Below are positions 29,747 to 44,368 of a stretch of DNA of 64,000 nucleotides, piece after piece. The notes under the pieces were generated by a model. That model had not been told where the DNA came from and made no database searches. It saw only the letters and a list, made by a program, of their open reading frames with translations. The DNA lies in the NCBI GenBank assembly GCA_964353135.1, contig CAYGTV010000002.1, forward strand, positions 1,125 to 65,124, written 5' to 3'. The stretch comes from an uncultured Candidatus Saccharibacteria bacterium. Its GTDB lineage: Bacteria > Patescibacteriota > Minisyncoccia > Phycocordibacterales > UBA918. The translations under genes and the position numbers were made by a program. Each line of letters starts with the position of its first letter. Position 1 is the stretch's first letter.

Positions 29747-29820
29747 GGCGACTATAGTATAACGGTTAGTGCACCGGTTTGTGGTACCGGCAGTTCGGGT
29801 TCGATTCCCGGTAGTCGCCC
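29747..29820 (+). tRNA. tRNA-His(GTG) with encoded G-1
   Basis: Manual fold. G-1:C73; acceptor GCGACTA/TAGTCGC; D stem with two G.U pairs; anticodon stem CCGGT/ACCGG with loop TTGTGGT; T arm TCGGG-TTCGATT-CCCGG. CCA not encoded. Confidence 0.85.
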
Positions 29821-29882
29821 TAAAGTCAAAAGACCAATTGAACTCTTTGTTTGAATGGTCTTTTGGTTCCATTAGACGAAGT

Positions 29883-30668
29883 TTATTTTAGATTCAGAGA
29901 GTTTGACCAGATATTATCAAACATGGAACGCATCATTTTTGAATGTGCCTGTGACTGTATAAGGACTGCATATTTTTCCTTTTTAGGTGACACATACAAA
30001 GTTTTATCATCATAGATAAAGATAGTGGTGTCAAAACTGTTATGCATGTCGATCGGCAATTGTTTTATGTCTGCGTCCAAATAAAACTCATCGATCACAC
30101 TTTTACTAGGAATATCTTCCCAGAGTGCAGTTGTCTGGATTTTTCTCTTTGTCTTTTCTTTCACGTATTCCTCAACAAAATCTGCACCCATTTCATGAAA
30201 GAAGTTTTTTGCAGGCACTATAGTTCTAATAGTTTTATCTTTACTATATAAACTATAAAAAATAGTTGCCTTAATTGTTTCAAAACTATCAAAATAAGAA
30301 ACTAGTGTTTTTTCAGTATCTTTGTTTTCTGGATAGTAATCCTTCAACTTTTTTGTTTTCTCTAACAACTCATTCTGCTTCCTAATATTCTTCTGCACCA
30401 ACTCAAGCAATTTATCTAAGGGTTCAACCTGAAACTTATTGCCATAATCCTTACCCGTCTTACTCACCAAACCTCTTTTTTCAAGAGAGTTGAGAGAATA
30501 GTAAACAGTAGGTCTTTTTTCATCAGTTACTCTTATAACATCTTGAACAGACTGTGCTCCATCAAGTAAAGATACATAGACCGCTATCTCGGCTGGTGAC
30601 AACCCAATATCCTCAAGGATAATTGTAATATCTCTTTTATTCATAGTTGTATAGTCGCTATTATACAT
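29883..30668 (-). CDS. TrmB-family transcriptional regulator
   Basis: N-terminal winged HTH IAVYVSLLDGAQSVQDVIRVTDEKRPTVYYSLNSLEKRGLV plus a TrmB C-terminal domain. AT-rich. Alternative ATG at 30644. Confidence 0.55.
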   Translation of the reverse strand: MYNSDYTTMNKRDITIILEDIGLSPAEIAVYVSLLDGAQSVQDVIRVTDEKRPTVYYSLNSLEKRGLVSKTGKDYGNKFQVEPLDKLLELVQKNIRKQNELLEKTKKLKDYYPENKDTEKTLVSYFDSFETIKATIFYSLYSKDKTIRTIVPAKNFFHEMGADFVEEYVKEKTKRKIQTTALWEDIPSKSVIDEFYLDADIKQLPIDMHNSFDTTIFIYDDKTLYVSPKKEKYAVLIQSQAHSKMMRSMFDNIWSNSLNLK

Positions 30669-30736
30669 AATTGAACATATGTATCAAACTCCCTATTATG
30701 CATTAAGTAGTTCTTTAACAAACGAAGGAGAAAATA

Positions 30737-31120
30737 ATGGATAATCTCGCAATTAACATAATCTTTGGTCATTTTGTTGGAGACTTCTTTCTTCAACACA
30801 AACTGATGGCAAATAATAAGTACCTGCCTGGATGGACTGCCGCTGGATGGTGTTCACTCCATGTTCTTGTTTACACCTTAACAGTTGCTACTTTTGCGAG
30901 TAACTTCTCGCCAATATTTCTGCTGGGTGTAGCAATTCCACACTGGATTGCTGACAGGTTTTCTATTGCACACAAATGGATGCAGCTAATCGGACGAGGT
31001 GACCTTATTCCAAATGATGATCCTACAAAAGCTGCTTTTGGGGCGATTATCTATGTGACTCTGGATCAGACCTTCCATCTTGGAAGCCTCTATATCCTCA
31101 TCCTGCTAACTCAAGCCTAA
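30737..31120 (+). CDS. DUF3307-like small membrane protein
   Basis: AAGGAG SD. 3-4 TM. HxxxDxxxQ pattern. Confidence 0.4.
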   Translation: MDNLAINIIFGHFVGDFFLQHKLMANNKYLPGWTAAGWCSLHVLVYTLTVATFASNFSPIFLLGVAIPHWIADRFSIAHKWMQLIGRGDLIPNDDPTKAAFGAIIYVTLDQTFHLGSLYILILLTQA

Positions 31121-31130
31121 GGAGAATACA

Positions 31131-31493
31131 ATGGGTATGTCTATGTTTGGTTCACGGTGTTCTGACGATTCTCACAGGGATTCTTATACACCCCCAGTTT
31201 ACATTCGTGAGGAAGTGCCATTACCAGGGAATCCGAATCCTAGTAACTTCGAAATTCAAAAACTGGAGAGAGTGAACCACTTCACCATAATGTTGGTTGA
31301 GTATCCTGATTGCCTGAACTTTGAAGGGAAAAAGATTTTAGTCTTCAAAACTCTTGCATTGGGTAACATCAAAAAAATCTCTTCTCTTGACCCTCACTTT
31401 TGTGATTCCACTAGGCACACATCACCAGTCGCACGATTTATGCCTACTGATCAAGGCTGGCAGTATGCAATTGCGTTTTGTAATAACGCATAA
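31131..31493 (+). CDS. hypothetical protein (120 aa)
   Basis: AAGGAG SD. Terminator immediately downstream. Confidence 0.4.
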   Translation: MGMSMFGSRCSDDSHRDSYTPPVYIREEVPLPGNPNPSNFEIQKLERVNHFTIMLVEYPDCLNFEGKKILVFKTLALGNIKKISSLDPHFCDSTRHTSPVARFMPTDQGWQYAIAFCNNA

Positions 31494-31498
31494 TATAT

Positions 31499-31532
31499 AG
31501 GCACCCATGTACTGGGTGCCTTCTTTTATATA
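31499..31532 (+). terminator. rho-independent terminator
   Basis: Stem aggcaccca/tgggtgcct followed by TCTTTTATATA. Confidence 0.55.
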
Positions 31533-31534
31533 AA

Positions 31535-31609
31535 CACCTCCCTCGCCTCCTCGAGCCAACCCACAGTCATCTCCTCAAACTGGTTCCACCCCATGGACAG
31601 TACGTGCCC
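31535..31609 (+). repeat. degenerate copy (R0) of the 3' half of the R repeat
   Basis: ctcctcaaactggttccaccccatggacagtacgtgccc versus the R consensus ...ttccaattggttccaccc.agggtcggtagtcgccc. Confidence 0.4.
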
Positions 31610-31818
31610 AGAATGCAGAAACTCCTTTGGGAGTTTTTTGCATTCTGGGTGACTAAGTGAGTGAATAGTTTCACTCACGTCCGGGAATCGAACGCCGGAG
31701 CGATGTGAGGAATTGAAATAGTCTGGGAGACTTTTTCAAAACGAACGAGTGAGGTGTGTCCCGCGGCACCTGCTAGATTGTGACTGAAAGGAAGCAAACT
31801 AGCTTGGTGACCGTCAGG

Positions 31819-31903
31819 ACGATTCCCGGTAGTCGCCCATCATTTTAAGACAAGTTATATAAGGGTTTTCTGAGTACCCTACCGAGACGTTCGAACTGAA
31901 TGT
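31819..31903 (+). repeat. attR-like direct repeat of the tRNA-His 3' end, plus junction module b
   Basis: gacgattcccggtagtcgccc (19/19 match to the tRNA-His end), then the b module a.c.ttttgaag...tataagggttttct.agtaccct..gagacgttcgaact. Confidence 0.6.
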
Positions 31904-31996
31904 TGCTTTTTAAATATATTTATTGCATAGTTGCCTGCAGAGAACATTTACGCGACAGTCTCGCGCAGTACTCTTCTATAAAGTTCATGTGAACCA

Positions 31997-32476
31997 ATGA
32001 AAGGATTCAGGATGACCTATACAGAAATTGAGAATACCATGGAGGCGCGCAAAGCACCTCCTGGGAAGTACCGCTTGCTGCTAGCAGGTGGTGGCGCCGA
32101 GCGTCCTCTGTGCCATGTTCAGGACTATGATCGTGCTGAACTCGCTTTGGAAGCGGCTGACAAACTTCTTCGTTCGAAGGAGATCAAGGGCTGGGGCATC
32201 GTTCACGACGGCAACGGACGGATTCTCACCCTCAACGATGGTCCTTCGCAGATGTATACCTACGATGACCTTCTTAAAACTTACGGTGGAGGCAAACGTC
32301 AACTTAGCAATCGGGCGTTTACCGCTGCACATGCTGACGCAATCGAAGCTCTCCAACCGGAGAGACTGCCTGGTTGGCAGAAAGGCGACCGTATGCTGGT
32401 CTTTTGGCAAGACATTGAAAAGGCGACTGGTGCCGTTGCCCTTTGCGGTGACATTCATGGTGTAATCAGCGGTTGA
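31997..32476 (+). CDS. hypothetical protein (159 aa)
   Basis: Cassette cargo. Terminator downstream. Confidence 0.4.
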   Translation: MKGFRMTYTEIENTMEARKAPPGKYRLLLAGGGAERPLCHVQDYDRAELALEAADKLLRSKEIKGWGIVHDGNGRILTLNDGPSQMYTYDDLLKTYGGGKRQLSNRAFTAAHADAIEALQPERLPGWQKGDRMLVFWQDIEKATGAVALCGDIHGVISG

Positions 32477-32510
32477 CCACTACCCCACGCCCACAAGACG
32501 GAGAAATGCT

Positions 32511-32545
32511 CCGCCGACGTGATCTGGCGGCGGGGTTTTTCTTTT
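32511..32545 (+). terminator. rho-independent terminator
   Basis: Stem ccgccga...ctggcgg followed by ggTTTTTCTTTT. Confidence 0.5.
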
Positions 32546-32808
32546 CATCATCTATATTCCCCTATCGAAGCTAGCTTTTCTTTCACACCACTCATATATT
32601 CCTGGTCTGAGAGAATGGTCAGAACAAGATTAGGACTCTGGCCCTAGTGAGAATTGAACGAATTAAACGTTACAATTCAACGACTTTTCAGTTCGAGCCA
32701 AACACTCCCCTTACACAAAATAGTGTATTCAGGGTGGAGTGAAATTGTAGGACACTTTACAGATACATTTTTTATAGTATTTTTGCACTGAAGACAACAA
32801 GGAGTCCT

Positions 32809-33252
32809 TTGATGAAACCAATAATTTGTGAACAAATCGCTCCCCCTGAAGTATTTGACATGCTTCATGAGCTATCAATAGGTAATGAAGCAACTGAGTT
32901 CATTGGCCGGACTCTCCACGAAGCAGAGTCAGGCGAAGGTCTATGTACCTTTGATGCCAATGAGCAACCAAACAGTAGAACAATGACGTTGATGTTTATG
33001 CTGCAAGCCCGAATGACTGGTGAAGTCGACAGAGCGGAAATGCTTAGGGAAAGTGGTTTGGCGGCAGAAATATCTGACGACAACAGCGACGACCTTGAAA
33101 ACTGGGATGGTATTGCATTGGCAATGCTGTTCGCAAGCGACGAATTGTTGGACAGAATGATTGCAAGCCTTCCACCTGAAGTGCGAAGCGTCATCATCTC
33201 CCAAATGCCAACCGAGCAACATGCACTTGCTCGTTCAATGTTCACAACATAG
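32809..33252 (+). CDS. hypothetical acidic protein (147 aa)
   Basis: AAGGAG SD. Cassette cargo. Confidence 0.4.
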   Translation: MMKPIICEQIAPPEVFDMLHELSIGNEATEFIGRTLHEAESGEGLCTFDANEQPNSRTMTLMFMLQARMTGEVDRAEMLRESGLAAEISDDNSDDLENWDGIALAMLFASDELLDRMIASLPPEVRSVIISQMPTEQHALARSMFTT

Positions 33253-33266
33253 AAAAAGAGACAAAC

Positions 33267-33464
33267 ATGTCAGATGATTTTGAATCATTCAAAGCCAGGG
33301 TGGAAGATGTTATTGTTGAGAAATTCAACGAATTTCGGCTTACCCAGGCAAACACGCTGCGGGAATCCGCAGCTTCAGCAACAGGTCAACGTAAAGACTT
33401 GCTGCTCAAAATGGCTGACGACTGGGAAAATGCCGCCACTCCTACGATAGAGGCTGCAGACTAA
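33267..33464 (+). CDS. hypothetical small protein (65 aa)
   Basis: Translationally coupled to the upstream gene. Confidence 0.3.
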   Translation: MSDDFESFKARVEDVIVEKFNEFRLTQANTLRESAASATGQRKDLLLKMADDWENAATPTIEAAD

Positions 33465-33524
33465 ACTTCCCCCCTTACAATTGAGCTATCCATTCGCTTC
33501 GGCAGTGGGTGGCTTTTTCTTTTG

Positions 33525-33641
33525 CCTACCAACCTAGTGGAACCACTTTCTCCCCTCTCACCTGAAACAAACCATTGCGTCACTTAACCATTCAAGACAC
33601 AGCTGTTCCAATTGGTTCCACCCGAGGGTCGGTAGTCGCCC
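33525..33641 (+). repeat. R1: 117-nt cassette-junction repeat ending in a tRNA-His 3'-end mimic
   Basis: cctaccaacctagtggaaccac...ccaattggttccacccgagggtcggtagtcgccc. ~90% identical to R2 and R3. Internal long-range inverted repeat gtggaacca/tggttccac. Followed by module b (33642..33703). Confidence 0.7.
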
Positions 33642-33732
33642 AACGTTTTGAAGTAGATTTTATAAGGGTTTTCTAAGTACCCTAATGAGACGTTCGAACT
33701 ATAAGTAAAAAGCCGCCCCGAGGGGCGACCGA

Positions 33733-34281
33733 TTAAGCATAATTTTTCTCAAGATACGCTTGGAGCTTTTCAATAGCTCTTCTTCGCATCGAAGTTTTGA
33801 CTGTCTGTTCTAGTGTCATCTCAGCCCAAGTAAGAGCCTCACCTTCTGGAACAAAGATGGGATTCCAACCGAAGCCCTCGCCTCTAGGTGATTCAGGTAC
33901 ACTGCCGCGGCACTCACCCAAGAAAAGATGGACACCTGTTTCATCACAAAGTGCGAAGCACGTCTCGGCCACTGCCCTCCGCTCCTTGTGACCCTTAAGC
34001 ATATCCGTCATACCTTGATTTCCAACAGATTCCAGAAACCATTTGACGAATGTACCAGGCAGTCCTTTGAGAGCCAGGAAGGTCAGAGCAGTATCTTCAA
34101 CCAGAACTGGGATACCAAGTTCAGCATAAGCGGCTTTTGCTTTTTCAGTCGCAACCTCTTCGAGAATCAAAGATTGAATCTCTGGAATATCCAGTTTTGC
34201 GTGTTGCACCTCAAAACTGAGATATTTACCGAGCTGAGCGGCTTTGTTGGGGTTTCCCGTAATAAACGTAAGTGATTTCAT
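33733..34281 (-). CDS. rdgB: non-canonical purine NTP pyrophosphatase (RdgB/Ham1 family)
   Basis: LTFITGNPNKAAQ motif. AAAGGA SD before the ATG at 34281. Terminator overlaps the stop. Confidence 0.7.
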   Translation of the reverse strand: MKSLTFITGNPNKAAQLGKYLSFEVQHAKLDIPEIQSLILEEVATEKAKAAYAELGIPVLVEDTALTFLALKGLPGTFVKWFLESVGNQGMTDMLKGHKERRAVAETCFALCDETGVHLFLGECRGSVPESPRGEGFGWNPIFVPEGEALTWAEMTLEQTVKTSMRRRAIEKLQAYLEKNYA

Positions 34282-34393
34282 AACTTTGTCCTTTCTACAG
34301 AATCTACGTTCAGCGTACACTCATTCTGGTTACTTTCAAGTTTTCAGTATCAAAATAAAATATTGGAATAAACACCGTTTCATCCCCCAATCT

Positions 34394-34523
34394 CTCAAAC
34401 ACAGTTCGAACCTTACAGGTTCAGTACACCTTTTGGCTAGATTATTTCGTACACTCATAATCTACCTCAAAAGCTCTTTACAACTCACCCCGTGAGCTGT
34501 AAACATCCTCTACGACGTCGCTC
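34394..34523 (+). repeat. split copy of junction module d
   Basis: ctcaaacacagttcgaacc (34394..34412) and atcctctacgacgtcgctc (34505..34523), separated by a 92-nt insert. The same module is contiguous at 38777 and 40993. Confidence 0.45.
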
Positions 34524-34617
34524 AATATATTGACATATACATTTTTTGTGTTATTTTGATTTTGGACAGATGTGTCCTTAACTGCACCCAAGGGTGCTCC
34601 AGATGTGGAGAAATAAC

Positions 34618-34998
34618 ATGAGTGCTATTACTGTCGAAGCTCTTTTGACGGGCGCAAAGGCGATTGAATTAGCGAGAGACGAAGTTCGTCATTTCCTCGG
34701 CATCATGAAGCCAATATGTTCAAACTGCAGTCTCATCACTGAAAAATTTACTCTTCCTGATACAGAACGACGTTTCTGGTGGCAACTGAAACAGACCATT
34801 CACAAAAAATCGTTTTTCCAGCTTTGGGAAGTGGTCTCTTACGGTCACATTGAACGGCTATGGGAAGGGTTCGCTGACGATGTGCCATCTTCGGATAAAG
34901 TGATTTGCGTACGGAAAGCGCTGCCGTTTCTTCTTTCAGACTGCGAGAAGAAGATTCCAGATTTTGCAGAGAAAATTCAGCCCTATCTGATTTCCTGA
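34618..34998 (+). CDS. hypothetical protein
   Basis: GGAGA SD before the ATG at 34618. Track ORF starts at 34594. Confidence 0.35.
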   Translation: MSAITVEALLTGAKAIELARDEVRHFLGIMKPICSNCSLITEKFTLPDTERRFWWQLKQTIHKKSFFQLWEVVSYGHIERLWEGFADDVPSSDKVICVRKALPFLLSDCEKKIPDFAEKIQPYLIS

Positions 34999-35026
34999 TT
35001 CGAAACAGGTTTCAATACCGTAACTG

Positions 35027-35061
35027 CCCCGCCTACAATTGGCGGGGCTTTTTTTCTTTTC
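35027..35061 (+). terminator. rho-independent terminator running into R2
   Basis: Stem ccccgcc-tacaatt-ggcgggg followed by CTTTTTTTCTTTT. Confidence 0.6.
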
Positions 35062-35064
35062 CCC

Positions 35065-35181
35065 CCTACCACCCCAGTGGAACCACTTTCGCCCCTCTTA
35101 CCTGAAACAAATCCTTGCGTCGCTTAACCAATCGAGACACATCTCTTCCAATTGGTTCCACCCTATGGACAGTAGTCGCCC
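35065..35181 (+). repeat. R2: 117-nt cassette-junction repeat
   Basis: cctaccaccccagtggaaccac...ccaattggttccaccctatggacagtagtcgccc. Followed by module c (35182..35248), which contains the hairpin ccctaga-ttct-ctaggg. Confidence 0.7.
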
Positions 35182-35341
35182 TACTGCCCTAGATTCTCTA
35201 GGGACTATATAAATAAAGGTATTCTGGTTCGACTATACGAGGTTTTTTCGTTGTCCACTGGACTTAGTGGAACCAAAGAAAAAGCCGCCCCATCGTGAGA
35301 CAGGACGGCATGTAAGTACACTTCAAGAACAGCCAGCTACT

Positions 35342-35737
35342 TCACCGCCAGTTCCGTGGCCACATTTCAGCAATGGCAGCCGAATGCGTCAGACTACCCA
35401 TGAATGCTTCCTCAAAGAGCACTCCTTGCTCGACAGCTTCATGCGGATTCCAGAACTTGAAGCGAAATTCCTGAACGATGGACATGTTCGGGTATCGCTT
35501 CTTTGCTCGGTCCAACGCCGCTGACAGACGAACACCTTCAGGCGACTCTGCAGTGAACGGAAAAGCCAGAAAAGAAGACATCCATCCACCTTTGAGAAGG
35601 ACTTCGTCAACTGCATGTTGCAGCAAAACATCACCGTCAGATACTTTGTCGAGTGCGTAGCGCAAACGCTGCACTGCGGGATGGCTCCATCCACGAACTT
35701 GTGATTCGCAGACTTTTGTTTCAGGTACAGTGGTCAT
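35342..35737 (-). CDS. hypothetical protein (131 aa)
   Basis: Cassette cargo. Confidence 0.35.
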   Translation of the reverse strand: MTTVPETKVCESQVRGWSHPAVQRLRYALDKVSDGDVLLQHAVDEVLLKGGWMSSFLAFPFTAESPEGVRLSAALDRAKKRYPNMSIVQEFRFKFWNPHEAVEQGVLFEEAFMGSLTHSAAIAEMWPRNWR

Positions 35738-35776
35738 GTGAGATTTCCTTTCAAGTCAAGTTTTGTCTCAAGATTT

Positions 35777-36364
35777 CTACTCAGATTCAGACAAGGCTCT
35801 GTCGGCCCAAAAGCCTTGTACTGCTTCATGCAGCAATAGTTCGAATGCCTTACCTTCGATTTTATATTGCTTCCAGGTGGTACCGTCCTGTTCAATGCGC
35901 TGGCCGTAGTAGTGCGCACCAAGACCTTCGTAGAGCCTGACGGCGTCGTAGTTCCAGTCCAAGACCTCAAAAGAGATTGTGTGGGTGTATTCACACACTT
36001 CCTTTGCTATCTTGCTGAAGAACTGCTTGGCCACACCTTGCCGCCGGACACTTTGCTCGACATACAAGTCATGCAGGCAAAACTCCCAGGAAGAGGCAAA
36101 CGAACTGAATCCACCATAGAACCCCATGGCAAATCCAACTGAAGAGCCATGCTCTGTCTCGGCAACCCAGGCATGTAGTTGTCGAGGGTCAGGCACTGGA
36201 AAGATACCTTCACGACTGATGTCCGTGTTTTGCAAAAAAAGCGCGAGGCTCGTTATACTGGGCTTGAAACTGTCTTCCATTTTTTCATACTTAGCAAGAC
36301 GCTTCATGAGTTGCACGATATTGCGTGTATCATCACGGGTGGCTCTGCGGATAGTGATTGTCAT
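35777..36364 (-). CDS. GNAT family N-acetyltransferase
   Basis: Acetyl-CoA-binding pattern (QxxGxG/A-like RRQGVAKQ). 195 aa. Confidence 0.65.
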   Translation of the reverse strand: MTITIRRATRDDTRNIVQLMKRLAKYEKMEDSFKPSITSLALFLQNTDISREGIFPVPDPRQLHAWVAETEHGSSVGFAMGFYGGFSSFASSWEFCLHDLYVEQSVRRQGVAKQFFSKIAKEVCEYTHTISFEVLDWNYDAVRLYEGLGAHYYGQRIEQDGTTWKQYKIEGKAFELLLHEAVQGFWADRALSESE

Positions 36365-36512
36365 ATCAAAGACCTTTCTTCTGTTTGTTTACTAGTTCAA
36401 GAGCCACAGTACCAAAAAGTATTGAATAAAGGAAGTATATGTGGCATTGTTCGAACGAAACAGCACCTCTGTTACGAGAGTATCGTAAAGTTCAAATTTG
36501 GGAGAAGACCCG

Positions 36513-37214
36513 ATGATTGATATTCACGGCGGGTCGAAAGACCCACGAGCAGCTCGACTCAGCAACTTCACCAACCGACCCTTCATGTTTGATGGCATTG
36601 CGTGTGCAGGTATCGAAGGTATCCTGCAAGCTCTTAAGGAGCCTGAAGCAGCAAAACAGCCAGGTATCTGCGCTCTTCGAGGCAAGGCGGCCAAGAAAGC
36701 CGAAAACGACTTAAATGGCTGGAAAGAGTCCCAAACACTGTGGTGGAAAGGTGTCCCCTACGAACGGTGTGGCCAGTCCTACCAAGTGCTCATCACCTGT
36801 ATCTACAATGCGGTGTATGAACAGGACCCAACCTTCAAAGAAGACTTGCTTACCGTTGAACTGGATGATATTTGCCACAGCATCGGCAATCCCGACCAAC
36901 GGGACACTGTGCTGACAGAGGTGGAGATGATTCACCAACTCAACAGGTTACGACTGCGAGCACTTCGGTCTGAAGGCAAACTACCTTCCAAAAAACCAAC
37001 TATGGACAATATTCCACACTACCGTGGAGTAAAGAAAGACGGCGACCCATTAGTTTTTCTGAAGCGACACTACGCCGACTGGATAGCTCTTGGTTTTCTA
37101 ACACAGGTGAACCTCCGTCAACATGACGAAAAGCTGGTAAACTCCCTGAAGTACAAACTTCGTACCGAAGGCAGAAAGCTAGCCGACATGGTTCCGCCTG
37201 GCATCAGGCGCTAA
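36513..37214 (+). CDS. possible NADAR (DUF1768)-like domain protein
   Basis: LSNFTNRPFMFDGIACAGIEGILQALK resembles the NADAR/YbiA FSNF..P...DG....SxEHxxQAxK motif. GGGAGA SD before the ATG at 36513. Confidence 0.3.
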   Translation: MIDIHGGSKDPRAARLSNFTNRPFMFDGIACAGIEGILQALKEPEAAKQPGICALRGKAAKKAENDLNGWKESQTLWWKGVPYERCGQSYQVLITCIYNAVYEQDPTFKEDLLTVELDDICHSIGNPDQRDTVLTEVEMIHQLNRLRLRALRSEGKLPSKKPTMDNIPHYRGVKKDGDPLVFLKRHYADWIALGFLTQVNLRQHDEKLVNSLKYKLRTEGRKLADMVPPGIRR

Positions 37215-37215
37215 C

Positions 37216-37268
37216 CACCCTGCACCAAGGAGACATCCTCTCCAATTAGTGCAGGGTGTTTTCTTTTG
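37216..37268 (+). terminator. hairpin terminator running into R3
   Basis: Stem caccctgcac/gtgcagggtg with a long loop, followed by TTTTCTTTTG. Confidence 0.45.
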
Positions 37269-37385
37269 CCTACCAACCTAGTGGAACCACATTCTCCCCT
37301 CTTACCTGAAACAAACCCTTGCATCGCTTAACCAATCGAGACAGAGCTCTTCCAATTGGTTCCACCCAAGGGTCGGTAGTCGCCC
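37269..37385 (+). repeat. R3: 117-nt cassette-junction repeat
   Basis: cctaccaacctagtggaaccacattctcccctcttacctgaaacaaacccttgcatcgcttaaccaatcgagacagagctcttccaattggttccacccaagggtcggtagtcgccc. Confidence 0.7.
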
Positions 37386-37484
37386 AGCGAAAAATATCTT
37401 CAGTAAACGAAGATATACAACAACATCTGAGTTCTGATATTTACTACACGTAATGGGAATTAGGAACTTTGGTATACTTTTTGT

Positions 37485-38498
37485 ATGAAAAACATTCAAT
37501 ACATTGAAGTGACAGGCTCTGCGTACGAACGTGGATTAAAGCAAGGAGTGGAGCTACAGGAAAGAATCAAACAAAATATTGAATTCTATAAGACTGTTGT
37601 TGATATACCAGAAGATGAACTCTTCCCCCAAGTGAGCCATTTTGCTCAAGTGATAAAGGATTTTAATGAAGAGTACGCCACTGAAATAGAAGCTATTGCC
37701 GAAGGAGCTGGGGTTGATTCAATCTGGATTTATTTCCTCAACTGTCGTACCGAACTAATCAACAACAAGAAAGTAACCGAGTGCACCACGTTCTTTTTCA
37801 AAGAAACGGCTATTTTGGGTGAAAATTGGGACTGGTCACAAAGGAGTGAGAAACTCATGATTGTAATCAAAGCAACGTCAGAGGATGGTCACTCGTATAC
37901 ACAAGTGACTGAACCTGGGATTTTAGGAAAGATAGGTATGAACGACAGAGGTGTTGGAGTATGCCTCAACATCTTGTTTGCCGAACGAGACAGAGTGTTT
38001 GGAGTACCAATTCATATTCTATGTAGAGCAGTGTTGGATTCTGAAGATGTTGTCACTGCTAAGCGTTTGGTTGAGGAGTACGGTAAAAACACAGCTAGTA
38101 ACTTACTCATCGGTGATGCCAGTGGAGCAAGCACTGACCTTGAGCTGGACGGTTTAAAAGTACTGGAACACACCACAGATGGAGCCGTTCTATTTCACAC
38201 CAATCACTACTTACGTGAAGAAAACAAAGACGAATGGATTCCTAAAAACTCACTAGCTAGACATACTTGTATAACAGGGAAAGTAATCGAACTGAACAGC
38301 TATTCAGTTGACGATGCTAAAGCCCTTCTCTCCGACAAGTCTGAGGGTGAAAAAGCGTTGTGTCGTGCATACTCACCAAAACCGCTAACAGGAATGCACG
38401 GAACAGTTGCGTCTATTGTGATGGACTTGAATAAGCGACAACTATACGTTACTGATGGAAATCCGATCGAGAATGAGTACGTAGTGTTTGATGTGTAG
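37485..38498 (+). CDS. C45-family peptidase / acyl-CoA:6-APA acyltransferase-like Ntn hydrolase
   Basis: ECTTFFF nucleophile region (Cys at the autoprocessing site). 337 aa. Confidence 0.5.
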   Translation: MKNIQYIEVTGSAYERGLKQGVELQERIKQNIEFYKTVVDIPEDELFPQVSHFAQVIKDFNEEYATEIEAIAEGAGVDSIWIYFLNCRTELINNKKVTECTTFFFKETAILGENWDWSQRSEKLMIVIKATSEDGHSYTQVTEPGILGKIGMNDRGVGVCLNILFAERDRVFGVPIHILCRAVLDSEDVVTAKRLVEEYGKNTASNLLIGDASGASTDLELDGLKVLEHTTDGAVLFHTNHYLREENKDEWIPKNSLARHTCITGKVIELNSYSVDDAKALLSDKSEGEKALCRAYSPKPLTGMHGTVASIVMDLNKRQLYVTDGNPIENEYVVFDV

Positions 38499-38547
38499 AA
38501 TAAATTAAAATACTTGCATTTGTAATAAAGTGTGTTACTATCTTACC

Positions 38548-38712
38548 TATCCAGTGCTCGGCGCTGGAAACAAGGACTAGGTCGTAACAAGTGTTACGTA
38601 GCGGAAGCTGCGGAACAAACGCATGGGGTGTAGTCCCAGGCGGTCGGTGAGAGCAAATCCATCGACCGCCACCACAGTTCAAATTTGCCAGCCGCTATGT
38701 GTCTGGTCTTTT
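38548..38712 (+). ncRNA. candidate small RNA, family unknown, flanked by a promoter and a terminator
   Basis: Promoter: TTGCAT (38514..38519), 16-nt spacer, TACTAT (38536..38541). Internal hairpins: 7-bp ccagtgc/gcgctgg, 8-bp ggcggtcg/cgaccgcc, and agc-GGAA-gct tetraloop. Ends in a hairpin plus TTTTTTT at 38709..38715. No ORF. Convergent genes on both sides. Confidence 0.3.
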
Positions 38713-38776
38713 TTTATATTGAAACAATTCCAGTGTTAATGAACGATGGAATATACAAAGTCACATCTCCCCTCTC

Positions 38777-38880
38777 CTCAAACACAGTTCGAACTTCCTC
38801 TACGACGTCGCCCAGCATTTTGAAGCAAGTATTGTAAGGTTTTTCTGGATACCCTACCTGGACGATTGAACCAAAACAAA
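38777..38880 (+). repeat. junction module d (tRNA-end variant cgacgtcgccc at 38803..38813) plus a module b variant
   Basis: ctcaaacacagttcgaacttcctctacgacgtcgccc, then agcattttgaagcaagtattgtaaggtttttctggataccct... Confidence 0.55.
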
Positions 38881-38921
38881 ACCCCTCATAACGGGGGTAT
38901 TGTTTTGAGTAATGTATGGAG

Positions 38922-40343
38922 TTAATCTTTAATCTCTAGATCAAGTGCCCCAGAGATCACTGATTGTGAAAGTCCTGAACGAGTAGCTAATGCCGTAATA
39001 AGCGTGGTCTTTCCTGTGTATGGCATTTCAAACTCATCTCGTGTACCACTGTATTCGAGTCGAACCTCAGCGATACCCTCTTCTACTCGTACTTCAATCT
39101 TCACTCGACCATCAGAATCATCAGGGGAATCTCCGCTATCGTCACCACTAGAATCCGAGTCGTCGTCAGAACCATTATTAGAATTAGAAGATGAATTATC
39201 ACTATAGTCATCAGAATCTTTGGCTCGGCTCGCTCGATCTTCAATCTCAAAATCTAGAACACGCTCGACGGTCGCGCGGTCGACATTAAAGCGAGCAACG
39301 ATTTCAGCGATTACTTCCTCTCCAGTGTCGGCAGTAGTTTCAAAGGTAGTTTTTCGGTCATTGATTTCCACCTTTATAATCGTGGTGTCGGTGAAGACAT
39401 CAGCTTCGGCTTCAAAGAAACTACTACTTGAAGAACGACTGTCATCGCTTGAATCATCGTCTTCACGTACTCGCACCTCTACTTCACCGTCCTTCTCTTC
39501 AATTCGAATTCGAGTTTCACCATCTCTAATTTCAATCCGAGAATCGCCATCATCATCATTTCGCACTTCTACTTGTGCCGAGCTGCTATCAAACGAGCGC
39601 AGTAATTCTTCAACAAATCTAGATTGATCATCATCGCTCAGTGAGCCAGTCAATTCTTCAAACAGCGTTACCGATGTACGCACGCGGTCGTCATCACTAG
39701 ACACGCTAGTAGACAAATCCTTTACCCGGCTCGCTCGATCTTCAATCTCAAAATCAAGGACTCGGTCGACTGTTGCGCGGTCAACATTGAAGCGAGCAAC
39801 GATTTCAGCGATTACCTCCTCTCGAGTGTCGGCAGTAGTTTCAAAGGTGGTCTTTCGGTCATTGATTTCCACCTTTATAATCGTGGTGTCAGAGAAGACA
39901 TCAGCTTCGGCTTCAAATTGGGTAATAATTACTTCATTTGAATTATCATCATTACTTGAATTGTCCTCCTCAAGTAGCGAACGGAGTTCGGCTAATCGTT
40001 CTTCTGCAAAAACAATCTTCAGACGTGCTTCCGCTTCGTCGCTTGTCGCGAGTGCAAGACGAACATCTTCAATCGCTTGGTCAATTGGGAAAAGTAAGTC
40101 TCCTGGGCGAGCTGACTCTGATGCGGCAGCTGTTCCGCCAACTCCTAGCATAAGTACGATAGCTGCAATAATTGGTGCCATAGGTTTTTTAAAATTAAAG
40201 TTTAATAGATATGGTGACGGAATCGGACTTGCTGTCACAGTTTCAGTTTTAATTCGCTCCCATAACTCGTTTTTTTGTGCCGTAGTGAGTGAAGCGGCTT
40301 TTTGGTCGAGGTGAGTCTCTAAGTTATTTTTTTTCATAGACAT
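38922..40343 (-). CDS. anti-sigma factor-like membrane protein with an internally duplicated extracytoplasmic domain
   Basis: Cytoplasmic N-terminus, one TM, then two ~66-aa near-identical repeats (FEAEADVF.DTTIIKVEINDRKTTFETTADT.EEVIAEIVARFNVDRATV.RVLDFEIEDRASR). Acidic Ser/Asp-rich tails. Directly downstream of the ECF sigma. Confidence 0.45.
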   Translation of the reverse strand: MSMKKNNLETHLDQKAASLTTAQKNELWERIKTETVTASPIPSPYLLNFNFKKPMAPIIAAIVLMLGVGGTAAASESARPGDLLFPIDQAIEDVRLALATSDEAEARLKIVFAEERLAELRSLLEEDNSSNDDNSNEVIITQFEAEADVFSDTTIIKVEINDRKTTFETTADTREEVIAEIVARFNVDRATVDRVLDFEIEDRASRVKDLSTSVSSDDDRVRTSVTLFEELTGSLSDDDQSRFVEELLRSFDSSSAQVEVRNDDDGDSRIEIRDGETRIRIEEKDGEVEVRVREDDDSSDDSRSSSSSFFEAEADVFTDTTIIKVEINDRKTTFETTADTGEEVIAEIVARFNVDRATVERVLDFEIEDRASRAKDSDDYSDNSSSNSNNGSDDDSDSSGDDSGDSPDDSDGRVKIEVRVEEGIAEVRLEYSGTRDEFEMPYTGKTTLITALATRSGLSQSVISGALDLEIKD

Positions 40344-40351
40344 ATTACTAC

Positions 40352-40891
40352 TTATGAAGGAAGTTCAATTAAAGCTGATAATGTTTTGAGCGCACGATGG
40401 TGTCGCACACGGACAGCTGATTCGGTCATTTGAATAAGTGAAGCAATTTCTTTGAAGGAGTACCGTGACCAGTGATGTAAGATAACAATTTCGCGAGTCT
40501 CGGATTCCAATTGTGCCAGAGCTCGCCTAATCTCATCCTGCGTCTCACTATTTTCAGAGACAGCGGAAATGGTGTTTTCATCGAGCAACACTGTTTGCTC
40601 ATCAAGACTTGTTTCCAAACGAGCGTACCACTTAGCTAATTTTCGTTTGGTGATCACAAAAACAAACGAATAAAACTGTGGGGCCGACTCATAGGTGAAA
40701 CTTGGTAGCGCTTTGTACAAATCGACAAACACCTCTTGAGTGAGGTCAAGAGCGTCATCTTCTCGTGAAGTTCTGTACTTTACATAGTTGTACACCTTAT
40801 CAACTAAGTGTTCATACAAAGCACGAAAAGCATCTGCCTCATTGGCGACGGCCCGTAGTACAAGGTCTTTTATTTCCTGTTCTTGCTCCAT
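40352..40891 (-). CDS. ECF-type RNA polymerase sigma factor
   Basis: Sigma-70 region 2 (DLTQEVFVDLYKAL) and region 4 (SFKEIASLIQMTESAVRVRHHRALKTL). ATG at 40891; track start is TTG at 40906. Confidence 0.7.
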   Translation of the reverse strand: MEQEQEIKDLVLRAVANEADAFRALYEHLVDKVYNYVKYRTSREDDALDLTQEVFVDLYKALPSFTYESAPQFYSFVFVITKRKLAKWYARLETSLDEQTVLLDENTISAVSENSETQDEIRRALAQLESETREIVILHHWSRYSFKEIASLIQMTESAVRVRHHRALKTLSALIELPS

Positions 40892-40992
40892 ATTTACTTC
40901 ACTCAATCATACTATGGATAGATTTGCCCGAAACGTTACATTTTTCAATTCTTTATAAAAGTTGGAATGTAGACAATTTCATCCTGTAATTG

Positions 40993-41096
40993 CTCAAACA
41001 CAGTTCGAACATCCTCTACGACGTCGCCCTACTGTCCTCGATTCTCTAGGGACTATATAAATAAAGATATTTTGGTTCGACTGTACGAGGTTCTTC
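40993..41096 (+). repeat. junction module d (core cgacgtcgccc at 41019..41029) plus module c
   Basis: ctcaaacacagttcgaacatcctctacgacgtcgccc, then tactgtcctcgattctctagggactatataaataaagatattttggttcgactgtacgagg, near-identical to 35182..35248. Confidence 0.6.
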
Positions 41097-41120
41097 GTGT
41101 TCCTACTGTCTGTAGTGGAA

Positions 41121-41894
41121 TCAAGCTTTTGTAGCCTCTGGAACAGGCTTTTTATTTAACTGACTAAATGCCAATTTTGGAGCGAGACGCTGCGACAGCT
41201 TAAGTAGTTTTGAAACACCAGGAGTAATTTCCACCTTGCCACGTATAAAGTCATTCCAGAATATATCAGCCAGTTTTTCAGTAGGCATTGGTTTGAGTAT
41301 ATCGTCGCTCAAATCAGCTTCTTTAGCTAATTTGGTATCAACGACAGGGGGCAATAGTTCAACCACCTTAATACCATGTAAAGCTAACTGGGGTCGGATA
41401 GCCATACTCCAGAAATGCATAGCTGCTTTAGTGCCAGAATACACCGGCGCTTGTGCATATGGCACATAGGCAAGCCCGGAAGAAGTATTTACCAGGACCG
41501 GATTTTGACTGACCTTGAGTTGCGGCAAGAAGTAATGCAGCATTCGCACAGGGGAGCTAAAGTTGATATCAATTTCAGTTAGTTGTGCAGTGAGGTCACT
41601 GCCTTCAGCTCCAGCGTCCATCAGCTTCATAATTCCAGCGTTGTTCATCAGAATATCTACCCCGCCAAATTGAGTTTGGATGTGTTCGGCCAGTGCCTTG
41701 ATGTCTGCTTCAGACGTCACATCACTACGCATAATATTAATTTCAGGTAGTTCACTTTTAACTTGCTGAAGTTTTTCTTGACTGAGTCCGGTCACGATAA
41801 CTGTGTTGTTGTGCTCAAGGAATTTCTTGGCGATAGCTAGCCCGATACCCGAGCTTCCACCAGTAATCAAAACGACGTTGTTAGATGTTTTCAT
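41121..41894 (-). CDS. SDR-family oxidoreductase
   Basis: TGGSSGIG Rossmann motif and YSGTK catalytic dyad. 257 aa. Confidence 0.8.
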   Translation of the reverse strand: MKTSNNVVLITGGSSGIGLAIAKKFLEHNNTVIVTGLSQEKLQQVKSELPEINIMRSDVTSEADIKALAEHIQTQFGGVDILMNNAGIMKLMDAGAEGSDLTAQLTEIDINFSSPVRMLHYFLPQLKVSQNPVLVNTSSGLAYVPYAQAPVYSGTKAAMHFWSMAIRPQLALHGIKVVELLPPVVDTKLAKEADLSDDILKPMPTEKLADIFWNDFIRGKVEITPGVSKLLKLSQRLAPKLAFSQLNKKPVPEATKA

Positions 41895-42027
41895 AGGTTA
41901 TGTAATTTATTAGTATTATCTATTTTTTATAAAGTGTGCAATCACGTCTTTTCTAAACAGCAACAGTAGTGCTAGCAGCTGGAACACATAGTGCTCGAGA
42001 GACAGTAGGTGCCCAGTGTTTTAGGTC

Positions 42028-42732
42028 CTATTTAGTAACGAATACTGAGGGTATGCTTGGTGTCTGCAAAACTCTAGTGATGAGATATACGTGGATAAAT
42101 ATTGCTAGAGGCACTTGGAAAATAGAAATTATCGTCAGTGGTGGCATCGCCATCGCAGTAGGTTCAGGCACAAGCTGTATCAGACCAAGGAACGATAGTC
42201 CGACTATGGTAAATGCTACAGCAAAGTCTAATAGACCGAAACCACACCAGCCGACAACAAACAATTTTTCTTTTATCGACTTGTGATACAGCAGCCACGC
42301 TATTACTACTGCGCTACTTGCAACCAGTAAGTCATATACTCCACTGACAAAACCAACTTCAAACGGTAAGGCTCCTTGGAAATAATAAAAGAGAAAAGCG
42401 AGGCCTACTATGCGATATGCTTGGGTACTGACAAGTACCCAAGTCGGCACAGCATCCAAAAAGTTTTTAAATGCTGAACTTTTTTGCCAAGCTATAAATA
42501 GACCAGCTAGAGGAATCATTAGCAAGATGCTGAAGAACATAAATCCTATCAGATCACCAGACTGCCATTCTCCTTTGACTTGTAGGTATGGGATTTGCGC
42601 CAAACCAACTGCGAGGACTAACCACGCTAGTACCAAATAACTTACAGCTCGTAACTTATTCCAACTATAGGCCGCAATCAGCCCTGTTACCACCAACCCT
42701 ATAGCTATAATCGCTAATGCTCCTACATTCAT
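42028..42732 (-). CDS. polytopic membrane protein
   Basis: ~7 TM. AT-rich. Confidence 0.45.
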   Translation of the reverse strand: MNVGALAIIAIGLVVTGLIAAYSWNKLRAVSYLVLAWLVLAVGLAQIPYLQVKGEWQSGDLIGFMFFSILLMIPLAGLFIAWQKSSAFKNFLDAVPTWVLVSTQAYRIVGLAFLFYYFQGALPFEVGFVSGVYDLLVASSAVVIAWLLYHKSIKEKLFVVGWCGFGLLDFAVAFTIVGLSFLGLIQLVPEPTAMAMPPLTIISIFQVPLAIFIHVYLITRVLQTPSIPSVFVTK

Positions 42733-42735
42733 ATG

Positions 42736-43230
42736 TTACATATTATTTTTAAGTCTGCGACTCAGCAACAAGTAGAAAATATAGAAGTGACTAATAAAGG
42801 CCGCCACTCCATACGTCACAAACATAAGCCAAATAAAGCCTAAGTTCTGGTTGTATAGTTCTAATGCAAAGAATTGCGGGAACGCATTAATCAAATCAGT
42901 GAACCCAACGATATTAAATACCCAAACCAAAACGATGGCTGACTGCCACTTCCCCTTCAAAGCGATAGCTGCAATAATCGCTAAAATACTTGTAGCCAGA
43001 TCCCACAAACCAACAGTAGTTAAAAACTCAATCGGGAAACCTCCGTAAAACTGTTCTGTTGCCATAAAAGACAACCCAACATACCGAAAGGCATTAAAGA
43101 AGACAAACGGCAGTAACGCATCGTAAAGAGATAGTTTTATTACTCGAGGATGAATCCACCATTTTAGCGCTAAGAAAATAGAAATCGCTCCAACTATTGC
43201 TTGAATATTAATGATTAAAAAATTACTCAT
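42736..43230 (-). CDS. membrane protein
   Basis: 4-5 TM. Confidence 0.45.
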   Translation of the reverse strand: MSNFLIINIQAIVGAISIFLALKWWIHPRVIKLSLYDALLPFVFFNAFRYVGLSFMATEQFYGGFPIEFLTTVGLWDLATSILAIIAAIALKGKWQSAIVLVWVFNIVGFTDLINAFPQFFALELYNQNLGFIWLMFVTYGVAAFISHFYIFYLLLSRRLKNNM

Positions 43231-43232
43231 AA

Positions 43233-43718
43233 CTATTCATAATTAACGTTATTTTTGTGTTGTCCGACCCGACTAGCATCGTAAGCTTTGAGAGCAAACA
43301 CCGCTGAGCAAAGAGTAATCACAACCCGTACCCAGTGCATAAAGAGCCACATACTGAGATTACTCGCTACGTCTGCCACTGCAATACTTTGATCCATAAA
43401 CTTTAGATTTAATGGCAAATGATAGCCAGCTGTTTGAACATTTACAATCAATAACGCAATTACTACATATGACCAGTATCTTCTTGTTTGTGTACCTTTT
43501 GGACTGGTGAAAAAAAGATAGATAGATCCTAGAAATGCTGGTAGCAGTGTGACCATAGTTGGTGCTAGTAAAAGTGGAAAATCAATTGCGAAGCTTTCCA
43601 TAAACGCAACTGGCTCTAGGCTCTGCCAGTGCAGACCGTAGCTGAGCCCAATATTAATCATGTTTCCAGCAAAAGCGCCGATAGCGATGATAACTACGTA
43701 AGGAATATATTTTTTCAT
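43233..43718 (-). CDS. membrane protein (DUF1772-like, 4 TM)
   Basis: 4 TM. ~160 aa. Confidence 0.4.
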   Translation of the reverse strand: MKKYIPYVVIIAIGAFAGNMINIGLSYGLHWQSLEPVAFMESFAIDFPLLLAPTMVTLLPAFLGSIYLFFTSPKGTQTRRYWSYVVIALLIVNVQTAGYHLPLNLKFMDQSIAVADVASNLSMWLFMHWVRVVITLCSAVFALKAYDASRVGQHKNNVNYE

Positions 43719-43805
43719 TATGTAATATTACTTGCAAATCAATAGTAATACAAGACATTACCTGTATAAAAGAATACTTGCACGTTATACTGATGCTACG
43801 TAAAT

Positions 43806-44228
43806 ATGAAGAAATTCCGTTCCAACTGCCCTATCGCTTCAACGCTTGATCTTATTGGAGATAAGTGGACACTATTGCTTGTGCGAGATATGCTCATGGG
43901 TCATAAAAAAACCTTTAAAGAATTTTCTAATTCTGCAGAGCGTATAGCCCCAAATATTTTGACCGTTCGGCTCAAGCAACTAGAGCAATTTGGTATTGTC
44001 ACCAAGCAAAAACTACCGACCAACAAGAAGGAGAACATATATCTACTAACCAAAGCCGGCATAGCCCTCGCACCCGCTATAATCGATCTTGCTTTTTGGG
44101 GTAGTGAGTACGCAAAAAAATATAATGATACGATTCCTACTCCAAAGCAACTTGGTTTTACCAGTAACAAAACACAACTAGTGAAAAAGATACGATCTGA
44201 TTACTTGTTGATGGTTAATTCTTTATAA
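43806..44228 (+). CDS. HxlR-family winged-helix transcriptional regulator
   Basis: CPIASTLDLIGDKWTLLLVRDM...FKEF, the HxlR signature. Divergent from the membrane-protein operon. Confidence 0.7.
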   Translation: MKKFRSNCPIASTLDLIGDKWTLLLVRDMLMGHKKTFKEFSNSAERIAPNILTVRLKQLEQFGIVTKQKLPTNKKENIYLLTKAGIALAPAIIDLAFWGSEYAKKYNDTIPTPKQLGFTSNKTQLVKKIRSDYLLMVNSL

Positions 44229-44304
44229 TCATACGTACTTAGAAACGTTCATCAGATGGTTTGAGATAAACATGAGCCGACAGTCAATTTGGCAAACATC
44301 CCCC

Positions 44305-44368
44305 TTGCTTCACACAACTACCTACTGAACTAGTGGGACTACTTTCTTTCCCCTGACCTGAAACAGCT
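44305..44368 (+). repeat. degenerate partial R repeat marking the distal end of the array
   Basis: cctactgaactagtgggactactttctttcccctgacctgaaacagc, matching the first ~60 nt of R. Confidence 0.4.

Follow-up and report, generated by a model that had tools for sequence, protein, structure and literature searches.

Integron gene cassettes and tRNA-anchored tycheposon arrays consist of tandem cargo units at recombination sites. The mRNA leaders of ribosomal-protein operons mimic local rRNA structure to recruit an rRNA-binding protein, and in eukaryotes the U6 small nuclear RNA (snRNA) is paired with the 2H phosphoesterase USB1. Bacteria of the candidate phyla radiation (CPR; Patescibacteria) have tiny genomes and, to our knowledge, almost no experimentally known regulatory RNAs. 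Bacterial Y RNAs (YrlA) are encoded beside the rsr/rtcB RNA-repair genes (PMC4201824). The present work concerns a predicted small RNA (sRNA) gene, positions 38549-38715 of the plus strand, in a stretch of 64,000 nucleotides (nt) of contig CAYGTV010000002.1, the whole of which is called the window below. The locus is likely a genuine sRNA gene of a new family. Part of its product resembles the 3' end of 16S rRNA.

A predicted RNA gene between convergent genes

The candidate region is bounded by a C45/AAT gene (37485-38498, plus strand) and a DUF5667 anti-sigma gene (38922-40343, minus strand), and its G+C content is 0.53, against 0.41-0.42 in both flanks. An earlier inspection of the letters alone (the sequence-only reading) had noted this convergent setting and had proposed a cassette-borne sRNA bounded by a promoter and a terminator. 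Its elements were recovered on re-examination: TTGCAT, separated by a 16-nt spacer from TACTAT, before which a TG makes an extended -10 element; the hairpin CCAGTGC-TCG-GCGCTGG; the hairpin AGC-GGAA-GCT, within 38598-38611; and the terminator hairpin CCAGCCGC-TAT-GTGTCTGG followed by T7. A helix of GGCGGTCGGTG with CATCGACCGCC (38639-38670) is present as well, its length being 11 bp rather than the 8 bp counted earlier. Transcription of the region was deduced from computed sequence features and conservation; the 5' end was placed by inference 7-8 nt after the -10 element, and the 3' end was taken as the T-run.

The plus strand folds with a minimum free energy (MFE) of -68.6 kcal/mol, compared to -50.5 +/- 3.9 in dinucleotide shuffles (z -4.64; 0/200 as good), and a repeat of the shuffle test gave z -4.76. 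The minus strand of the same region reached a z of only -2.2. A generic sigma-70 scan did not call the promoter (7/12 matches) and a terminator scan missed the terminator hairpin; for this reason the promoter alone, judged on the window sequence only, would be weak evidence. The element TGtTACTAT is nonetheless in line with the extended -10 elements that this genome places near start codons lacking a Shine-Dalgarno (SD) sequence. No SD sequence was found upstream of some 40 inspected window open reading frames (ORFs) of at least 200 aa, and in many window genes a -10-like element lies a few bases from the start codon. The strict extended -10 motif TGNTANNNT occurs within 60 nt upstream of 12 of 50 window ORFs, and in 8 of the 50 it ends 1-14 nt before the start. 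Extended -10 motifs so near the start codons imply leaderless mRNAs, suggesting that translation in this CPR lineage is largely leaderless. By the placement of its ArgS protein the host is a Paceibacteria-like CPR bacterium: ArgS falls within Patescibacteria, and with 60-65% identity to its best named relatives, which come from Kaiserbacteria, Pacebacteria and Parcubacteria.

The sequence-only reading had also remarked that the element contains no ORF with an SD. Since the genes of this genome show no upstream SD, that half of the remark carries no information; better evidence comes from the five homologues described below, which have no ORF in common. The idea of a small ORF or type I toxin was rejected on this absence of a conserved ORF.

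Homologues and conservation

Five distinct sequences of the family were obtained: the window copy, L053, L101/L102, L099/L100 and L110. L053 was reached by fetching the tRNA-His islands of relatives via the neighbouring NrdB gene (80 loci) and searching them with nhmmer. Its copy (4232-4387, minus strand; E 8e-8) lies within the tRNA-His island of its genome and is the exception, no other of these islands having one. It has the promoter TTGCGC-17-TGcTATAGT and the terminator CCAGTC-ACTACA-GACTGG + T6, and downstream lies a recombination arm identical in type to that of the window (...CACAGTTCTAACTTCCTCTACGACGTCGCCC). The L101, L099 and L110 copies were found by searching for LigT homologues and examining their contigs. 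L101/L102 is a third type A copy (90 bits with the covariance model), whereas L099/L100 and L110 represent, with one copy each, a divergent type B whose homology to type A was picked up by nhmmer at E ~1e-3. Type B copies lack the 11-bp helix and the segment corresponding to 16S rRNA 1494-1504, and keep the promoter, the hairpin with the GGAA loop and the terminator.

Alignment of the five sequences (alignment A3; 61% mean column identity) revealed invariant blocks at ACTTG (-35), TG.TA...T (-10), AACA.G, TAGCGGAAGCTG and the CCAG...T-run of the terminator. The promoter spacer varies among the five copies while the -35 and -10 blocks stay invariant. Likewise, the interiors of the terminator stem differ and the hairpin and T-run are kept. 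The GGAA-loop hairpin (TAGC-GGAA-GCTG) contains four invariant pairs, C-G, G-C, A-U and U.G, and 5 of its 11 pairs, all in the lower stem, show double (both-side) changes. Hairpin cells are paired in 81.8% of cases vs 68.3% in shuffles (0/500), and the covariation score is 0.427 vs 0.172 (1/500); when the register was slid as a control, 20-56% were paired. The other type A copies fold at z -4.3 and -6.1. The long-range helix closing the 5' and 3' ends in the MFE fold of the window copy is not conserved in L053 and was dropped. A small hairpin following the GGAA hairpin has the counterpart GGGAC-UUA-GUCCC in L101, and AGUCCC recurs in type B at another position. The loop of the 11-bp helix ranges from 10 to 17 nt among type A copies, and ACC(A/C) comes directly after the helix; helix and ACCA together may resemble a tRNA acceptor minihelix.

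Thus, the four homologues, which keep the -35, the extended -10, the covarying hairpin and the terminator, give comparative backing to the sRNA proposed initially; both the promoter (by sequence only) and the intrinsic terminator are conserved. The alternative raised with that proposal, that the element is simply the 3' untranslated region (UTR) and terminator of the C45 gene, did not survive the comparison, because C45 homologues at 73% (L002) and 60% (L003) identity are without the element and because elsewhere the element follows LigT. The RNA gene is very probably transcribed independently, as a ~165-nt RNA of a family undescribed in CPR bacteria.

The family appears to be rare. The pattern GCGGAAGCTGCGGAACAAACGC had 0 matches in species-representative genome contigs; the pattern GTAGTCCCN{0,2}GGCGGTCGGTG had 14 in genome contigs, from unrelated phyla, none of them real by the covariance model; and GGTGAGAGCAAATCCATCN9CCACAG had 0 in metagenome contigs. 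Four patterns gave 0, 0, 12 and 17 matches in viral contigs, none real by nhmmer, and blastn of the locus against phage and plasmid collections returned no match. No description of such an RNA or of such arrays was found in the literature. Against Rfam 15, the whole window yielded four tRNAs only at the gathering threshold; at E<=10, the interval 38400-38950 and three homologue loci yielded chance-level sRNA matches and nothing relevant, so that the covariance-model check suggested along with the sequence-only reading found no SRP, 6S or other relevant family.

Known RNA classes were rejected one by one. The small signal recognition particle (SRP) RNA, RF00169, gave no match at the gathering threshold in the window or at E<=10 in 38400-38950, and the tentative resemblance to SRP domain IV noted earlier gives way to a match of the GGAA hairpin to 16S helix 45. 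For 6S RNA (RF00013 and relatives) there is no Rfam match, and the predicted fold is multi-branched, not a rod. A bacterial Y RNA is disfavoured by the lack of an Rfam match, by the lack of a Ro/TROVE domain among the neighbours scanned, and by the 5'/3' closing helix of the window copy, which is not conserved. A riboswitch or cis-regulatory leader would need a downstream ORF; the terminator is followed instead by the cassette arm (window, L053, L110) or by unrelated sequence (L099, L101). As far as covariance models tell, SRP, 6S, Y RNA and riboswitches are excluded.

Resemblance to the 3' end of 16S rRNA

In the established structure of 16S rRNA, positions 1506-1529 form helix 45, the last hairpin of the molecule, whose universally conserved GGAA loop holds the two adenosines dimethylated by KsgA. 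When compared to the rrnH operon of E. coli (all 5.1 kb), the window RNA found its best local match at 16S 1494-1526, GUCGUAACAAG-GUAACCGUAGGGGAACCUGCGG, with a score of 37 vs 21.2 +/- 2.2 in shuffles (0/300). The L053 RNA found its own best match at 16S 1493-1523 (score 32 vs 20.9 +/- 2.3; 1/300), and an nhmmer search with the L101 RNA picked 16S 1484-1528 from ~1 Mb (E 0.11). In the ~1 Mb of sequence fetched, the 11-mer GUCGUAACAAG is confined to these RNAs. E. coli helix 45 has the same G-C, A-U and U.G pairs that are invariant in the RNA. Type A copies show all the marks of a helix 45 mimic, namely the GGAA loop, a ~10-bp stem, the U.G wobble and a preceding strand corresponding to 1494-1505; type B copies show the hairpin only. 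The blocks most conserved within the family coincide with the 16S-like blocks, which argues for a constraint on mimicry rather than a decaying rRNA fragment.

The similarity does not extend further. The anti-SD tail (GAUCACCUCCUU) is absent from every copy and no rRNA motif was found in any fetched locus. When the 3' halves of the RNAs were compared to tRNA-Ile, the 5' end of 23S rRNA and the decoding site (1397-1414, 1485-1496), the best matches fell within the shuffle distribution. A 16S rRNA gene or pseudogene fragment was therefore rejected: the likeness is limited to 1494-1526, the anti-SD is missing, the 3' halves are not rRNA-like and there is no match to the small subunit (SSU) model.

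Linkage to LigT and position in a cassette array

In L053, L101, L099 and L110 the stop codon of a LigT-type 2H phosphoesterase gene lies directly before the -35 element of the RNA gene, and LigT keeps both HxT catalytic motifs. The L053 cassette that carries LigT and the RNA also holds EamA and APH genes; in L110, LigT and the RNA are followed by an arm and core of the window type. The LigT-RNA linkage is frequent, not obligatory. In the window, C45 occupies the LigT slot of the same cassette chassis: C45 of the window and LigT of L101 are preceded by an identical TGGTATACTTTTTGTATG, and in both cassettes the RNA module comes after the ORF.

Some neighbours deserve mention in their own right. 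In L002 (6980-10104) the closest relative of the C45 gene (73% identity) has genes for an APH-family kinase and an RsgA-type GTPase as its neighbours; an APH/C45/LigT cargo set recurs, APH being found also in the L053 cassette that carries the RNA. Three contigs share a conserved set downstream of the LigT-RNA module (L099 4799-7571, L100 839-3611, L101 3198-6261): a 490-aa protein of unknown function, a ThiF/E1-like protein and a ThiS/ubiquitin-like protein. Upstream of the module are restriction-modification or DUF3800 genes. This neighbourhood looks like a defence island. PADLOC gave no match on LigT, C45, APH and their neighbours.

The cassette array that the sequence-only reading had assumed proved real, its junctions having a shared core and repeat arms. 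It runs from tRNA-His (29748-29820) to about 44.4 kb (29748-44365) and contains at least eight junctions with a common core, GTCGCCC, which equals the last bases of tRNA-His. Junction arms come in three left-arm types and at least two right-arm types, in mosaic combinations. The cassette with the RNA is delimited by the cores at 37379-37385 and 38807-38813 and contains the C45 gene and the RNA only. The left arm of the junction that follows the RNA, "type 3", also lies 3' of the RNA in L053 and L110; the arm motif occurs in 17 of 112 sources (related CPR metagenome contigs). The Logan assembly contig L001 equals 37259-38831 and thus corresponds to just this cassette, the assembly having broken at the repeats. 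No integrase, IntI or other, was found in or beside the arrays scanned. An integron attC site was rejected as an identity for the element, the boundary repeats (38731-38880) being separate from the RNA and no integrase being present in the arrays examined (attC was judged without a formal model). Pairing between the RNA and the att core, in the manner of a bridge RNA, amounted to coincidences of 6-8 nt seen by eye only, with no covariation available. The array as a whole resembles an integron-like or tycheposon-like system in Patescibacteria. Coordinates are collected in Table 1.

Table 1. Features of the cassette that carries the candidate RNA (window coordinates)
Feature	Position	Strand	Basis or remark
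Core GTCGCCC of preceding junction, left end of cassette	37379..37385		Junction comparison
Cassette promoter TGGTATACT, 6 nt before C45 start codon	37470..37478	+	Implies leaderless mRNA
C45 family acyltransferase/hydrolase gene, sole protein cargo of its cassette	37485..38498	+	Pfam PF03417 E 6e-22; NCBIfam C45_proenzyme E 1.5e-63
-35 element TTGCAT	38514..38519	+	Read in sequence; ACTTG invariant in 5/5 homologues, alignment A3
Extended -10 TGtTACTAT (TACTAT at 38536-38541)	38533..38541	+	TG.TA...T invariant in 5/5 homologues
Predicted ~165-nt non-coding RNA, type A	38549..38715	+	MFE z, homologues, no conserved ORF, no Rfam match
5' hairpin CCAGTGC-TCG-GCGCTGG, window copy only	38551..38567	+	MFE fold; absent from all 4 other homologues
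GUCGUAACAAG, identical to E. coli 16S rRNA 1494-1504	38581..38591	+	Local alignment to rrnH operon; invariant in 3/3 type A copies
Helix-45-like hairpin, GGAA tetraloop (loop 38603-38606)	38592..38617	+	TAGCGGAAGCTG invariant in 5/5; aligns to 16S 1506-1526
Small hairpin GGGGU-GUA-GUCCC carrying conserved (U)AGUCCC	38625..38637	+	MFE and consensus folds
11-bp helix GGCGGUCGGUG/CAUCGACCGCC, variable loop, then ACCA	38639..38674	+	Stem near-invariant in 3 type A copies; absent in type B
Intrinsic terminator hairpin CCAGCCGC-UAU-GUGUCUGG + U7 (38709-38715)	38688..38715	+	Read in sequence; CCAG...CUGG hairpin + T-run in 5/5 copies
Left arm "type 3" ending in core GTCGCCC (38807-38813)	38731..38813		Repeat families D8, D12, D14
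Right arm "type 1", start of next cassette	38814..38880		Repeat family D5; junction comparison

Further observations were made on the junctions. At the end of the "type 1" right arm stands a promoter, (T)TG(G/A)TATACT, with 6 nt between it and the ATG of the first cassette gene (window 37386-37484, L101 2206-2276, L110 1831-1902); each cassette thus comes with a promoter from which a leaderless mRNA would start. Minus-strand translation of the junction arms gives a conserved peptide-like sequence, ..GYPEKPYNTCFKMLGD|VVEEVRTVFEE..IP.F* (window 38714-38880, 40947-41029 and 34358-34525; L053 4137-4215). The copies differ by changes that look synonymous, although an in-frame stop interrupts one of them; the sequence may be a target gene's displaced 3' end or may be coincidental. 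The first junction includes a long non-coding stretch (31541-31900) with a hairpin of the 20-bp class, CCCAGAATGCA...TGCATTCTGGG, a 5' acceptor-like GGGTGACTA able to pair with the junction's GGTAGTCGCCC, and, on the minus strand, a tRNA T-arm-like fragment, GGCGTTCGATTCCCGG; ARAGORN calls nothing in this stretch.

Proposed function and alternative explanations

We tentatively propose that the cassette-borne RNA is a trans-acting mimic of the 16S 3' end with a protein partner, a reading that may well prove wrong. The RNA gene, with its own promoter and terminator, occupies the last position of small mobile cassettes, usually right after LigT and before the recombination arm. Its product would work in trans by imitating the structure of the 16S 3' end: a protein whose usual target is that end would be bound or titrated by the RNA, or would use it as a substrate. 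That protein might be the 2H RNA-end-processing enzyme transferred along with the RNA, a factor for rRNA modification or assembly, or a nuclease directed at rRNA. Both the trans action and the binding partner are drawn from computed covariation, linkage and 16S similarity. A context of RNA-end processing or repair seems most likely, because the recurrent partner gene is a 2H phosphoesterase with both HxT motifs. A more specific version, in which the RNA is a decoy substrate for ribotoxins, or a donor or guide for the repair of cut 16S rRNA, appears quite improbable. It was suggested by the 16S similarity, which starts at A1493/G1494, the established cut site of colicin E3-type and CdiA-type ribotoxins, and by the RNA's normally travelling with a 2H enzyme, of a kind that heals 2',3'-cyclic phosphate ends. 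On that version a host translating leaderless mRNAs would have no need for the missing anti-SD.

Several observations weigh against a 16S mimic, or against parts of the evidence for one. The 16S reference was that of E. coli and may differ from the host's own helix 45, and at E<=10 the region still goes unreported by the Rfam SSU model. Type B copies are without the 1494-1504 segment, which reduces the family-wide 16S likeness to a ~13-nt GNRA hairpin, and their folds are weak (z -1.6 and -1.8). With related sequences such covariation controls are lenient, the 11-bp helix of type A copies is without covariation, and the family sample comprises only five distinct sequences, all metagenomic. As for the linkage, there is no LigT gene in the window, and LigT cassettes without the RNA are found in L103-L107, L109 and L111.

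Two rather unlikely alternatives, about equal in our estimation, retain a functional element. The RNA could be an ordinary trans-acting sRNA carried as cassette cargo, regulating mRNAs by base-pairing through the conserved single-stranded stretches AACAAG and AUCCGCCAG, its likeness to 16S (a GNRA hairpin and a short word) being incidental. A promoter, a terminator and conserved unpaired motifs are what such an RNA would have, type B lacks most of the 16S-like segment, and the 3' halves have no significant rRNA similarity. However, both type A RNAs tested map independently to the same 33-nt segment of 16S (z ~7 and ~5), the pairs that stay invariant in the hairpin, the U.G wobble among them, agree with the established E. 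coli helix 45, and no mRNA target was identified. Alternatively, the element could work in cis at the cassette end, stabilising or terminating the upstream mRNA and insulating the arm and the next cassette, with the promoter secondary or unused. The invariance of the -35 and extended -10 in five diverged copies is hard to accommodate here, as is a conserved, covarying structure of ~120 nt, which far exceeds the need of a terminator; moreover, other cassettes with the same arm manage without the element. Its position, always between the last ORF and the cassette arm, would nevertheless suit such a role, and no terminator separates the C45 or LigT stop codon from the element, so that read-through transcripts would include it.

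Less probable still is a neutral relic, that is, a decayed piece of an rRNA operon (the 3' end of 16S with remains of a spacer or tRNA) that a mobile cassette picked up. The clear similarity to 16S 1494-1526 would be expected of one, tRNA fragments are scattered in the array as well, and the family is rare, being absent from species-representative genomes and, L053 excepted, from the 80 related tRNA-His islands. Decay is, however, difficult to reconcile with a hairpin that keeps its pairing through double changes at ~61% mean column identity, or with a promoter and terminator kept in all copies, an architecture that is shared and not independently derived; and every copy lacks the anti-SD, which in a real 16S 3' end is conserved more than any other part. 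We give a slim chance to an element acting as DNA, with the 11-bp inverted repeat and the palindromes serving, in the way of attC, as folded single-stranded DNA or protein sites for recombination. The recombination arm is ~15-100 nt away, the two 11-bp arms do not vary and show no covariation, and at this site the covariance model has a reverse-strand match as well. Type B, however, lacks the inverted repeat and yet has promoter, hairpin and terminator, most junctions with the same arm are without the element, and the strand asymmetry of T-run, promoter and fold energy indicates an RNA. Finally, a divergent version of a known RNA (SRP/4.5S, 6S, Y RNA, or a riboswitch that lost its downstream gene) is hardly credible: CPR RNAs are often divergent and the GGAA tetraloop is superficially like SRP domain IV, but neither the window copy nor three homologues matched Rfam 15 at gathering or at E<=10, and the element belongs to a variable cassette, is missing in most relatives and in no copy has a downstream ORF.

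Other features of the window

The DUF5667 anti-sigma gene pairs with an extracytoplasmic function (ECF) sigma gene on the minus strand, the pair spanning 38922-40906. It contains an internal direct repeat of 202 nt (39215-39416 and 39716-39917; 91% identity), which, by its sequence, is a recent internal duplication. The isoleucyl-tRNA synthetase (7022-10564, minus strand; 1180 aa) has an inserted histidine-phosphatase/phosphoglycerate-mutase-like domain at residues ~528-697. The beta subunit of ribonucleotide reductase (RNR; 27393-28706, minus strand) has an N-terminal extension of ~115 residues; this ATP-cone-like part matches the N-terminal ends of the alpha and the anaerobic subunits of RNR.

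Comparison with known systems

With five distinct sequences the family is rare, and what is described here is a well-founded lead rather than a result. If the proposed mimicry of 16S rRNA is true, the family would be a new example of rRNA mimicry by a mobile element, moving beside an RNA-end-processing enzyme, and an entry point to the protection or tuning of a minimal, SD-independent translation apparatus in CPR bacteria. The tRNA-His-anchored array, without integrase and with leaderless promoters in its arms, is of independent interest for CPR genome plasticity.

Like integron cassettes and tycheposon arrays, this array has tandem small cargo units, conserved recombination sites and one anchor, here the 3' end of tRNA-His. 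It differs from them in having no integrase within or next to the arrays examined, arms that are no palindromes of the attC kind, and one arm type that holds the leaderless promoter of the first gene; the RNA is cargo, not a recombination site. With 16S helix 45 and the 1494-1505 strand, the RNA shares a 33-nt collinear match to E. coli 1494-1526, the GGAA tetraloop, the G-C/A-U/U.G pairs below the loop-closing pair and a ~10-bp stem; unlike helix 45, it has a flipped loop-closing pair (G-C to C-G) and another lower-stem sequence, and it lies not in an rRNA gene but in a mobile cassette, as a ~165-nt unit with its own promoter and terminator and no anti-SD. A GGAA tetraloop on a G+C-rich stem is common to the RNA and domain IV of SRP 4.5S RNA, but the cassette RNA has no symmetric or asymmetric loops, no RF00169 match at E<=10, and is absent from most relatives.

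In the leaders of ribosomal-protein operons, as perhaps here, a short RNA copies an rRNA structure for an rRNA-binding protein. Those leaders are cis-regulatory and lie upstream of a gene, whereas the cassette RNA stops at a terminator with no gene downstream of it. The U6/USB1 pair likewise joins a 2H enzyme to a small RNA that ends in a hairpin and U-tract, and this suggests that the 2H enzyme could act on the 3' end of the cassette RNA; the U6/USB1 pair is eukaryotic and has no sequence relationship to the present one, whose pairing is one of gene adjacency only. As to the Y RNAs (PMC4201824), the cassette RNA is without a Ro60 gene, a Y-RNA stem or an Rfam match, its neighbour is a 2H phosphoesterase and not RtcB, and it would mimic helix 45 (with a possible acceptor-like minihelix) where Y RNAs mimic a full tRNA. 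In both cases, a small structured mimic of a translation-machinery RNA would lie beside a gene for RNA-end processing or repair, and such an RNA probably serves as a protein partner or tether, not by base-pairing.

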